Part shown: piece after piece, positions 6,001 through 9,000 of the stretch | Numbering within the stretch: the stretch's first letter is position 1 | Layout: each line of letters opens with the position of its first letter | Made by a program: the position numbers | UHGV virus genome: UHGV-0153540 | Direction: 5' to 3' (one strand) | Length of the DNA stretch: 18,580 nt | Source of the DNA: a virus

Positions 6001-9000
6001 AGGCTACTGTGTTTAGTAATCAGATTTGTTCGTGACCGATATGCACGGGCAAAACGGCAGGAGGTTGTTAGCGCAACCTCTTGCCACCCGCTTTCACGAA
6101 GGTCATGTGTAGAAGGCCGCAGCGTAACTATCACTGATGAATTCAGGATAGCCAGTGGCTACGGCTCAGTTTGGGTTGTGCTGTTGCTGGGCGGCGATGA
6201 CGCCTGTACGCATTTGGTGATCCGGTTCTGCTTCCGGTATTCGCTTAATTCAGCACAACGGAAAGAGCACTGGCTAACCAGGCGCGCCGACTCTTCACGA
6301 TTATCGACTCAATGCTCTTACCTGTTGTGCAAATAAAAAAAGCCACCGTTGCAACTTAAGAGTCACTAACGGCAGCTTACATCTTTAAACGGTATGATAT
6401 TTCATTCTGGCTGCCTCAAAAGCCGCAGCGGCAAGTTCGGCAGTGTCATGGTATCCAAGGTTAATACACTTTCCAGACGCATTAATTCTTGCTCTCCATT
6501 TCCCGTACTTAGCATCCCAAGACACGCCACGGTATCCAGATTTATTATTCTTCTGAATTTTCCTGTTTTGCATATTTTCGGAATGAGTGACAAGACGAAG
6601 ATTTGATATCCGGTTATCTGTTCTTACCCTGTTGATGTGATCAATAAAACCATCGGGCATGGTGCCATAAACAATCAACCATGCCAGTCTGTGAGCAGGG
6701 CATGCTTTACCATTAATCATAATCATTAAATACCCATCAGAATTTATTGATGAGCATTTCTTGAAAGCAAAACGAGAGTTCCATGTCAAAGTGGTCCTCT
6801 CTCTCCCCTGCCTCCATCTCCAGTGAAAGTCGCCTGATGATGGATTGTAATCAACAACAGAAAGCACCATTTCTGGCGTTAATTTTATTTCTTTCATCGC
6901 TTTACCTTAGGGATAGAGCCTGTTCGCGTAGATATGACAGCCAAGAGCGGAGCGATGTTTCCACCACCATATCTCAGGCCCATATCACTAAGACTCTTGT
7001 TTTGATTGCACGCGAATGCAAAAAAGCCCACAGGAGGTGGGCTTGTGATGGTTGCTGAATGCAAAAGCAGCAGCATATGTGAATATTATGGCTAAATGGC
7101 TAATTGCATGTCAAGACTTTTAACAGCAACATGCTTAACTTTCTCAACACGTTTACGCATTTTGAAAGCATTTTGCATTGGTTGGTACAAAACAAATAAC
7201 GACGCTTTCAGGATGTCGTCAATTTCGTTTCTACAGGTTGCCATTGAAGGTTTTCTCCATCCCTCGCCACCACGTCCACACATCTTGCGTGGCTTTGCAG
7301 TCGCGTGATAGTAGGATGCAATTGCTCGCTTAGATGAACCATGAGCGTAGTAGCTGAGGAGGATGCCAAAGGCTTTCTTGTCAATGTACATGACGGAATC
7401 GACGACCTGAGAAATCAACATTCCATCATCATCATTACACATTGGCCTTGTCATAACTCTTCCCGGCTCTACGCTCTCCATGAACTTCGCTATTACGCTG
7501 CTCATGCGCTTTTCCAGACGACCTGAATAAACCCATGCGCCCCACAGTTCAAGCCAGCCATTCAGCCACTCATGCTGTTCTTTGGTGAGGTTTAGTTCTC
7601 TTATGCCCACGCGCCTTCTCCCTGTACCTGAATCAATGTGAGATTTCCGCAGAACACTGCGCCGGTATCGATATACATCTGGTTGGCAAATTTGAGCGGT
7701 TTCACTGCTGGCGTATGACCAAAGATGAACATGTCCGCGCCTTTGATTTCTTTCACGATCCCGTCTTGTGAGTTGCTGATTCGTTCGCGGTTCCAGATTA
7801 CCTGCTGATGATCAACTGGCTTTCCAAACTCGTATTCGTCACAAGGATAATCGGCGTGGCAGATGACATATTTTTTATCTTTGCTCACCAGTTCGATGAT
7901 TAACGGAAGTTCATCTGCTTTATGGGCAAGAGCTTTAGCCAGAATTTCTTTGTCGTAATCGAGATTAAAGAACCAGCCACCGCCATTAAGCAGCCAGTGA
8001 TTGACGTTTCCACGCTCTGATAAGCCATCAATCATCATGTGCTCATGGTTTCCACGTACAGCTCTGAACCAGGGGAATGTGATTAATTCCAGGCATTCAA
8101 CGTTCTCTGCACCACGATCAACCAAATCGCCAACCGAGATAAGCAGGTCTTTTTTGGTGTCGAATCCAATCGTATCCAGTTTGTTCATCAGGTTCGTGTA
8201 GCATCCGTGCAGGTCGCCAGCTACCCAAATATTTCGGTATTTGCTGCCATCAATTCTTTCGTAGATATTCATGCTGCCTCACTTCTGCTGTTTCGCAGAT
8301 TTTTAAGTTTCTGCTGATACTCCGCCTTGATGGCCCTGCACTCTTCGACAGTCCAGCGATGGCGGTTATGGTTTAATTCGATTTCGTCTACTGCTTCCTG
8401 CCCGATGCGATTAATCAGTTCGACGCGATACGGAACGAGATTTCCGCTTTTGTGCTGGTTGCACACCACGCATTGCTTGTGAATATTGCGTTCATCAAAT
8501 CGGAGTTGAGGTGCCGCAGCAGTTGTCCGGTAATGTCCGGCATCCCACTGAGCAGACGTGAGCGTTCCGCACGAGATACATGGTAAGTCGCGGTCTCTTT
8601 CTCTGATGAAGGCGTTTACGGCTTGTTGGGCTTGTTTAATCCAGTAACTGCGGGGCTTTAAGGCGAGTTTTCGAATCTTAAGTTTATCTTTCTGTTTCTG
8701 CTCCTCTCGTCGTCGTTTCTTCTCTGCTGCTTTTTCCGCTTTTTCGCGTTCTTTACTTCGTCGTTCGAGTGCTATCTTGGTTCCACACTCTGGAGAGCAC
8801 CACCACTGATTAGCGAATGCAGGATGAAACCATTCCCGACATTTATCGTTTTTACATCGTCTTCGCGCTGGTTTAGCCATCGTCTTCTTCCTCGTGCATC
8901 GAGCTATTCGGATCGCTCATCAGTTCTGCACAGCAGTGCTCACACACGTGAACTTCCAGCACATGCAGCTTCTGACCGCAGTTAGCGCACGTTAAAGCTC

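Follow-up and report, generated by a model that had tools for sequence, protein, structure and literature searches.

The HNH nicking homing endonucleases I-HmuI and I-HmuII of the Bacillus phages SPO1 and SP82, the HNH-AP2 endonuclease family (Magnani et al. 2004) with the 'IPA-HNH' genes of ICP1 (Barth et al. 2023) and the genes of Xp10 and Xop411, and the Seg and Mob endonucleases of T4 are the described systems closest to the element reported here, which is a 170-aa HNH-AP2 gene in the late leader of the virus genome UHGV-0153540. The stretch analysed is 18,580 nt long and is called the window below; all positions are positions in the window. I-HmuI and I-HmuII are the best matches to the protein in sequence and in fold, and the D-H...N...N pattern is common to both, but I-HmuI is encoded inside a group I intron of a DNA polymerase gene and carries a C-terminal helical/helix-turn-helix module, whereas the gene in the window is free-standing, is located in a non-coding regulatory leader and has an AP2 domain at its end. 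The HNH-AP2 family has the same architecture of an N-terminal HNH and a C-terminal AP2 domain, but its genes lie between or inside essential genes of virulent phages, whereas the present clade is restricted to temperate lambdoid phages and to their Q21-type late leader, where a terminator stands on either side of the gene and a structured leader ahead of it. The T4 Seg and Mob genes are likewise intergenic, show presence/absence polymorphism in close relatives and are expected to spread through cleavage of the allele that lacks the endonuclease, with co-conversion of flanking markers, but Seg proteins belong to another nuclease family, GIY-YIG, and the likely target here would be regulatory and promoter-proximal, not the coding sequence of a neighbouring gene. 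As to its niche, the gene resembles the late-leader morons of lambdoid phages, namely stx and the tRNA genes of phage 21, Sf6 and 933W, which occupy the same interval from PR'/tR' (late promoter and its terminator) to the holin gene and depend on Q for read-through; in Sf6 and Oslo this leader holds tRNA-Asn and tRNA-Thr, which in E2348/69-type alleles are located 3' of the HNH cassette. Those other morons lie 3' of a single tR', whereas the HNH cassette is bounded by the -10 element and the resident tR' and brings in another pause element and another terminator. What was observed is a unit that is nearly invariant across differing Q genes, promoter variants and downstream leaders and is absent from most relatives at exactly the same site. 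The interpretation that we favour, and consider reasonably likely, is that a P22-like lambdoid prophage with a phage-21-type Q has in its promoter-proximal late leader a free-standing cassette for an HNH-AP2 endonuclease of the homing type.

The open reading frame (ORF) of the gene (6385..6897, minus strand) runs intact from ATG to TAA. Pfam and PHROGs bore out the first-pass annotation, which had placed a 170-aa HNH plus AP2 protein here: HNH_3 (PF13392) was matched at residues 68-110 (E=3.8e-18, 65.3 bits against a cut-off of 24.8), AP2 (PF00847) at residues 120-167 (E=1.6e-08, 35.1 bits against a cut-off of 33.3) and phrog_99, 'HNH endonuclease', by the protein with E=1.8e-72. A NUMOD-type module, which had been named together with these two domains, was not found in the protein at E<=0.01. 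With a profile built from the protein and its relatives, residues 49-113 aligned to I-HmuI (PDB 1U3E) and the C-terminus to plant AP2 domains. The AlphaFold model, with a predicted local distance difference test score of 93, gave I-HmuI (1U3E; 107 aligned columns) and plant AP2 domains as its top Foldseek matches, and the AP2 domains of WRI1, ERF1 and TEM1 matched both by sequence and by fold, with a root-mean-square deviation of 1.1-1.5 Å over about 50 residues. The order of domains in the 170-aa protein is thus an I-HmuI-like N-terminal sheet and HNH core (D86, H87, N108) followed by the C-terminal AP2 domain. In 59 homologs D86, H87, N99 and N111 are invariant and N108 is nearly so, and the counterparts of the DH...N motif of I-HmuI in the alignment are D86, H87 and N108. 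The protein falls in a nuclease family and its catalytic residues are intact, from which nuclease activity is predicted. The GC content of the ORF is 41.1% compared to 46.6% for the window. NCBIfam has no family for the HNH-AP2 protein, and PADLOC returned weak generic 'homing endonuclease' models only and no defence system. The HK629 phage record and RefSeq already list the gene as 'HNH endonuclease', and we are nearly certain of its identity and architecture. Two of the HNH proteins in the databases, P0004 and P0010, are 199 aa long; their 29-aa N-terminal extension reads the leader RNA in frame. A 60-aa ORF at 7076..6894 (minus strand) was considered as a further gene and is probably spurious, as it is without a family match and crosses a terminator and the RNA leader.

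The gene was confirmed to lie between Q/PR' and the holin gene, with a phage-21-type Q upstream and a lambda-like pre-holin leader downstream. Q (7092..7610, minus strand, 172 aa) matches PF06530 (E=1e-25) and phrog_943 (E=4e-93), and it matches the Q21 structures PDB 6JNX/6P18 with E=3e-92, the N-terminal 100 or so residues being identical and the C-terminal part diverged. The late promoter PR' (7085..7114, minus strand) has the -35 element TTGACA at 7114-7109, an 18-nt spacer and the -10 element CATAAT at 7090-7085; it scored 11/12 in a promoter scan, aligns with the annotated PR' of HK75 and Sf6, and lies inside the last codons of Q. The scan found no other sigma-70-like promoter on the same strand from Q to the holin gene, and a sigma-70 promoter inside the leader was rejected as the scan showed none on the HNH strand besides PR'. 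The HK629 record (L001, 2190-2195) puts a putative PR' 3' of the first terminator, in the leader RNA; homology to HK75, Sf6 and phage 21 favours the end of Q. In the PR' spacer there is a direct 8-bp repeat, ATTAGCCA (7104-7097) and TTTAGCCA (7096-7089), which is a candidate Q21 binding element. Yin, Kaelber and Ebright report that the site bound by Q21 consists of two 8-bp subsites in direct repeat and that positions -40 to -1 of PR'21 together with the sigma-dependent pause element in its natural place suffice for Q21 loading; the pause of phage 21 is at +18. The spacer repeats vary with the Q subtype, being ATTAGCCA/TTTAGCCA, TTGAACAA/ATGAGCAA, CTTGAGCA/GTTGAGCA or TTTTACC/ATTTACC (window 7104..7089; loci L008, L012, L014 and L069), and they are candidate Q-binding elements that co-vary with Q.

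Directly past the -10 element the window carries an alternative discriminator and start, ATTCACA, and the pause element TATGCT (together 7072..7084, minus strand). The predicted +1 is near 7078 and TATGCT, at 7077-7072, is -10-like and sigma-dependent. This is followed by the first intrinsic terminator, tR'_A (7020..7044, minus strand), found by a terminator scan, which consists of AAGCCCAC-CUCCU-GUGGGCUU and then U6 and has a folding energy of -12.5 kcal/mol (z=-3.35 compared to shuffled controls). The first-pass annotation had described a short terminator right after Q within the usual order of Q, PR', tR', leader and holin. A hairpin with T6 is present at 7044..7020 as described, but together with the first transcribed bases it belongs to the low-diversity unit of the HNH gene, homology to relatives breaking directly past the -10 element of PR', and the layout was refined in that PR' overlaps the 3' end of Q and a second terminator, the tR' of phage 21, follows the HNH gene. 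This right edge (6335..6384, minus strand) begins with AGATG, continues with a promoter-less phage-21 pause element, TAAGCT (6379-6374), and ends in the phage-21-type terminator tR'_B (6376-6335, minus strand), whose stems are at 6376-6368 and 6350-6342 and are followed by U7; its folding energy is -20.2 kcal/mol (z=-4.6 compared to shuffled controls), and the Sf6 record annotates the same sequence as tR' similar to phage 21. Judged by sequence the Q21-type late set is complete, with a Q21-family Q, an 8-bp direct repeat 5' of +1, a pause element positioned to cause pausing at about +18 and an intrinsic terminator.

The boundaries of the unit were established by aligning the window to HK629, which has the same arrangement at 99% identity, and to the HNH-less phages HK75, Sf6 and Oslo. 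Homology to these three spans Q and PR', ends at 7085 directly past the -10 element and restarts at about 6380. The empty allele reads CATAAT-TAGAAGG-TAAGCTGCCG and runs on into the terminator, and the allele in the window reads CATAAT-ATTCACA-TATGCTGCTGC, followed by the hairpin with T6, the leader of about 125 nt, the HNH gene, AGATG and TAAGCTGCCG with the terminator. About 704 bp thus stand in the place of about 6 bp of the empty allele. The register of the pause element is equal in the two, the hexamer being exactly 7 nt past the -10 element in CATAAT-N7-TAAGCT (empty) and in CATAAT-N7-TATGCT (occupied), and N7-TATGCTGCTG is kept behind at least six promoter variants while the N7 itself varies. 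Two junctions, CATAAT|TAGAAGGTAAGC and GGGCTTTTTTT|GTTTGCAC, were found only in empty alleles. A target-site duplication, for which the first-pass annotation had suggested looking, did not turn up: the alignment with empty alleles shows none of the transposon type and the sole repeat is the imperfect pair of pause elements, TATGCTGC/TAAGCTGC. Over its first 86 nt the insert shares 80% identity with the post-Q region of the HNH-less Hafnia phage yong1, with identical initial transcribed bases, and in yong1 the same leader and terminator, the latter being the sole late terminator there, show compensatory stem changes. The first stretch of the insert is therefore a genuine alternative late leader and terminator. 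Without the HNH gene it is also present behind 21-type and other promoters (loci L119, L121, L122 and L124).

Empty sites are common in relatives, which contradicts one of the two outcomes that the first-pass annotation had named as refuting it, a uniform presence of the gene at this position; the other, assignment to a non-nuclease family, is contradicted by the domain matches given above. Besides HK75, Sf6 and Oslo, at least 120 IMG/VR contigs have the empty junction and about 36 are occupied, and in complete E. coli genomes 39 of 5426 are occupied (>=96% coverage, about 99% identity) and about 800 match the flanks only. The low-diversity unit is about 743 bp long (7084..6342) and comprises the replacement start, the pause element, the terminator, the leader RNA and the HNH ORF, with the phage-21-type terminator at its 3' edge. 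Its edges are the same in 24 distinct occupied loci, in which nucleotide diversity is 0-0.017 over 7084 to about 6342, 0.03-0.10 in Q and 0.3-0.5 past 6330; the edges are sharp and on the downstream side diversity climbs only after about 6341. The cassette is 97.5-100% identical where the adjoining Q is 86-100% identical (86-91% in L069 and L099), and it is seen with two types of Q and binding element, with both alleles of the upstream Q-binding element (QBEu) and with at least three types of downstream leader, namely tRNA-type, HK75-type and lambda-type. A G/T polymorphism in the upstream PR' repeat (window 7100), 16 bp from the junction, segregates in occupied and in empty alleles. Occupied loci are enriched for its G allele (24:9 versus 24:88, odds ratio 9.8, p=1e-7), the contigs not being independent. 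There are also truncated derivatives, in PhiR12 phages and as the partial proteins P0005-P0020. In Stx-type PhiR12 (L005, PhiR12_1, 2501-2760; also in E. coli NCTC9112) the Q21-type promoter, the first terminator, the leader RNA and the first 68 nt of the HNH ORF are present, and past this remnant there is unrelated sequence toward a CP-933V-like large ORF, which makes this a decayed cassette. This population pattern is that expected of a homing element, and ordinary recombination in the conserved flanks could give the same pattern.

The association of the gene with this site extends well beyond E. coli. All homologs at 52-75% identity, from E. coli, Serratia, Pantoea and metagenomes, lie 197-245 nt past a Q21-family Q, and paralogs at 36-45% identity in the same loci sit elsewhere. 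Between lineages the proportion of synonymous differences (pS) is about 0.8, that is saturated, and that of nonsynonymous differences (pN) is 0.17-0.31; the closest pair has a dN/dS of 0.31. Because synonymous sites are saturated at such a pN, the association with the site is of long standing and purifying selection acts on the protein. Directly 3' of the HNH stop codon there is a terminator in all lineages, of a type that differs among them. More distantly, at 40-45% identity, the gene is related to the HNH-AP2 genes of Xp10/Xop411, of Felix-O1-like phages and of other virulent phages, annotated as homing endonucleases, and the combination of an N-terminal HNH with a C-terminal AP2 domain is a recognised homing-endonuclease family in the literature. 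A search of genome contigs with a profile made from the HNH alignment gave 6 distant homologs only, in unrelated metagenome-assembled genomes with uninformative context.

Between the first terminator and the ORF there is a structured 5' leader RNA of about 125 nt (6898..7021, minus strand), which scores 120 bits with the covariance model. Its P1 hairpin is at 7021-7006, and about 90 nt further 3' an internal loop holds CGCGAA (6928-6923), the complement of the P1 loop UUCGCG, so that a pseudoknot is formed. The basal helix of a long multi-helix stem pairs UCUU with the Shine-Dalgarno sequence AAGG (6908-6905). RNAalifold on 25 distinct sequences gave 34 pairs, of which 12 have compensatory changes. 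In alignment A4 with the added helix 98.5% of the cells are paired as against 31-57% in slid controls, and there are 13 pairs with double changes as against 0-2; in alignment A5, made from 17 of the more diverged copies found by the covariance model, 21 of 30 pairs are compensatory. Six different loops each fit their own target with 5-7 bp, compared to 2-4 bp for loops and targets that do not belong together. Across HNH lineages in which synonymous sites are saturated, the leader keeps 91-97% identity. A 17-mer from it matches 94 IMG/VR contigs, and in about half of these the leader is ahead of unrelated genes; it is always 3' of an intrinsic terminator and often just past the lysis genes. The cargo behind it can be HNH-AP2, another His-Me nuclease, T5orf172, KilA-N, Rha, ANT or TerB. 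Copies of about 125-140 nt are present in late regions of lambdoid and Klebsiella phages (L006 3915-4051, L007 2449-2589, L025-L118, L122, L167 and others). Rfam gave no match to the leader, neither at the gathering threshold nor with relaxed E-values, that is at E<=1 over window 5900-7150 and at E<=5 over the leader copies in L006 and L007; the sole match, a chance P9 on the opposite strand, was discarded. The leader was also considered as a small upstream peptide, and this was rejected: in L008 a stop codon breaks the frame and the nucleotides are still conserved, P0004 and P0010 merely reading the leader in frame. The leader probably damps or gates translation of the HNH gene by pairing with its Shine-Dalgarno sequence, and our best guess for the family as a whole is that it gates translation of potentially harmful accessory proteins in antiterminated late transcripts. 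Neither the arrangement nor the RNA turned up in literature searches that covered HK629, HNH genes in combination with Q and holin among lambdoid phages, and RNA motifs associated with KilA.

Two further observations concern diverged copies of this leader. In the window a weak match to the covariance model at 4758..4612 (minus strand; 11.7 bits, E=0.22) runs precisely up to the start codon of a KilA-N/ORF11CD3 gene (4614..4117), directly past the Rz terminator, and may be a diverged second copy; a near-identical KilA-N/ORF11CD3 gene in L154 has a strong leader copy, with 94.9 bits. In tRNA-type late leaders (L040 1168-1036, minus strand; L075 494-627) a diverged copy precedes an ORF of 141-143 aa with a TerB domain, and this ORF is located past a terminator that lies just 3' of a tRNA-like sequence.

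The way in which such a cassette would work can be outlined from the order of its parts. PR' would fire constitutively and polymerase would pause at TATGCT, at about +2 to +7. Without Q, transcription would stop at the first terminator (7020) and yield an RNA of about 60 nt, and with Q on the 8-bp repeats of the spacer a terminator-resistant polymerase would be formed that reads through the leader, the HNH gene, the second terminator, the lambda-like leader, the holin gene and the rest of the late operon. The HNH gene would then be the first Q-dependent late gene. Because it sits 3' of PR' and a terminator, we predict with good confidence, in agreement with the first-pass annotation, that its late expression depends on Q, and because the unit brings its own pause element and terminator, Q control of the late genes would survive the insertion. 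By analogy with I-HmuI and with T4 seg and mob, when a relative without the HNH gene is co-resident, the enzyme would introduce a nick or cut into the late leader of that relative, and repair from the occupied allele would copy the cassette into the cut allele. That the gene is actively homing has in our view an even chance or slightly better. We entertain tentatively, as a possibility short of an even chance, a more specific form of this proposal, in which a homing lineage has specialised on a regulatory site, namely the few bases between the Q21-type -10 element and the pause element, and persists by means of its replacement pause element and terminator, with the pseudoknotted leader gating translation as it would for KilA-N, Rha, ANT and T5orf172 and with loop and target varying like a specificity code.

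Several points weigh against the homing cassette. Conservation is far greater in the leader than in the HNH coding sequence, unrelated genes also stand behind the leader, and since it is shared and conserved, ordinary recombination in the leader and the terminators could move the cargo without a nuclease. The IMG/VR and RefSeq loci include many near-duplicates, and the counts and p-values given above overstate independence. For the replacement leader, the start of transcription, the pausing of polymerase and the loading of Q are predictions. The direction of change fits two histories, the phage-21-type empty allele being either the insertion target or the product of a deletion in the occupied allele. 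A 21-type promoter with the first leader and terminator alone exists (L121), and both of the 'empty' alleles could derive by deletion from the occupied one. Because the terminator after the HNH gene differs among lineages, insertion and deletion would both fit.

Much of the same evidence would be accommodated by a passive late-operon moron, that is a module of terminator, leader RNA, ORF and terminator in which the cargo is exchanged by homologous recombination and the HNH gene is kept for a benefit to the phage, for example the degradation of host or competitor DNA late in infection. That one leader family stands ahead of KilA-N, Rha, ANT, T5orf172, TerB and another His-Me nuclease is the chief argument for such movement by ordinary recombination, and the near-identity of the leader across HNH lineages that are saturated at synonymous sites, as well as the terminator of differing type right after the HNH stop in all lineages, fit it too. 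We nevertheless consider it unlikely, as one HNH clade is bound to one site after a Q21-family Q across genera, the architecture is that of a recognised homing-endonuclease family, the low-diversity block is sharp-edged, and, were the benefit strong, the gene would be expected in more than the roughly 5% of prophages, alike in other respects, that have it; none of these points is decisive. It is improbable that the protein is instead a nuclease-dead AP2 DNA-binding regulator, a transcriptional silencer or anti-defence factor, descended from a homing endonuclease. Other phages have turned AP2 domains of homing-endonuclease origin into DNA-binding silencers, as in the CasPRs, but those that are characterised join AP2 to CapR and not to HNH, and the catalytic positions of the HNH core are conserved throughout the 59 homologs as described above. 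In cos phages, terminase can be stimulated by a small HNH protein of the phage, and HK97 gp74 shares with the present gene the HNH superfamily and a late position. A role as a terminase or packaging accessory in DNA maturation is, however, extremely improbable here, and the first-pass annotation was right to dismiss it on seeing a P22-like headful terminase away from the HNH gene: the terminase genes (GP3_package and Terminase_6N/6C, 3238..1270) are of the P22 gp3/gp2 headful type and are about 3 kb from it, the protein is I-HmuI-like with AP2 and thus of another subfamily and architecture than the minimal HNH of gp74, and most relatives with the same Q and late region are without the gene, which is dispensable in them. 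The homing-type cassette accordingly stays the interpretation that we prefer.

The surroundings of the cassette are those of a lambdoid prophage. On the minus strand the order is the NinI phosphatase (8272..7601), Q, a 194-nt spacer, the HNH ORF, a 456-nt leader, the holin, an endolysin that is a signal-arrest-release (SAR)-type lysozyme, and Rz. The late leader up to the holin start (5929..6341, minus strand) had been recognised as resembling the pre-S leader of lambda with the hairpin before the holin, and this holds: 6341..5933 shares 96.6% identity with lambda 44775-45181, the leader that adjoins lambda S on its 5' side, and the scan places the hairpin at 5950-5935, just ahead of the start codon. 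The first downstream lysis gene encodes a class II holin of 67 aa (5725..5928, minus strand; PF16080, E=4e-21). There are no tRNA genes in the window. An Rfam match to Lambda_thermo, the lambda cIII thermoregulator, at 18408..18466 (plus strand; 88.5 bits) marks the early-left region of the prophage. HNH_3 genes, some with AP2, are also present in the nin regions of related prophages, beside NinG/NinH or overlapping the start of Q (L008/L010 1776-2297; L012 959-1549; L014 1544-2098; L015 1042-1518), and the neighbourhood of Q appears to be rich in homing-endonuclease-like genes.

The nuclease family itself is known, and what the searched literature does not describe is the niche of the clade, the rebuilt Q-loading site and the structured leader. 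A whole HNH clade is bound to the first 250 or so nt past Q21-type late promoters in several enterobacterial genera. A unit that starts directly past the -10 element and rebuilds the pause element and terminator used by Q would show that a selfish insertion is tolerated in a constrained regulatory site. Q21 antitermination is a structural model system, and a natural allele with a swapped initial transcribed region is a ready test of what Q21 loading needs. Finally, the covarying pseudoknotted leader is common to many unrelated late accessory genes and is a candidate for a new class of regulatory RNA in well-studied E. coli phages such as HK75 and HK629.

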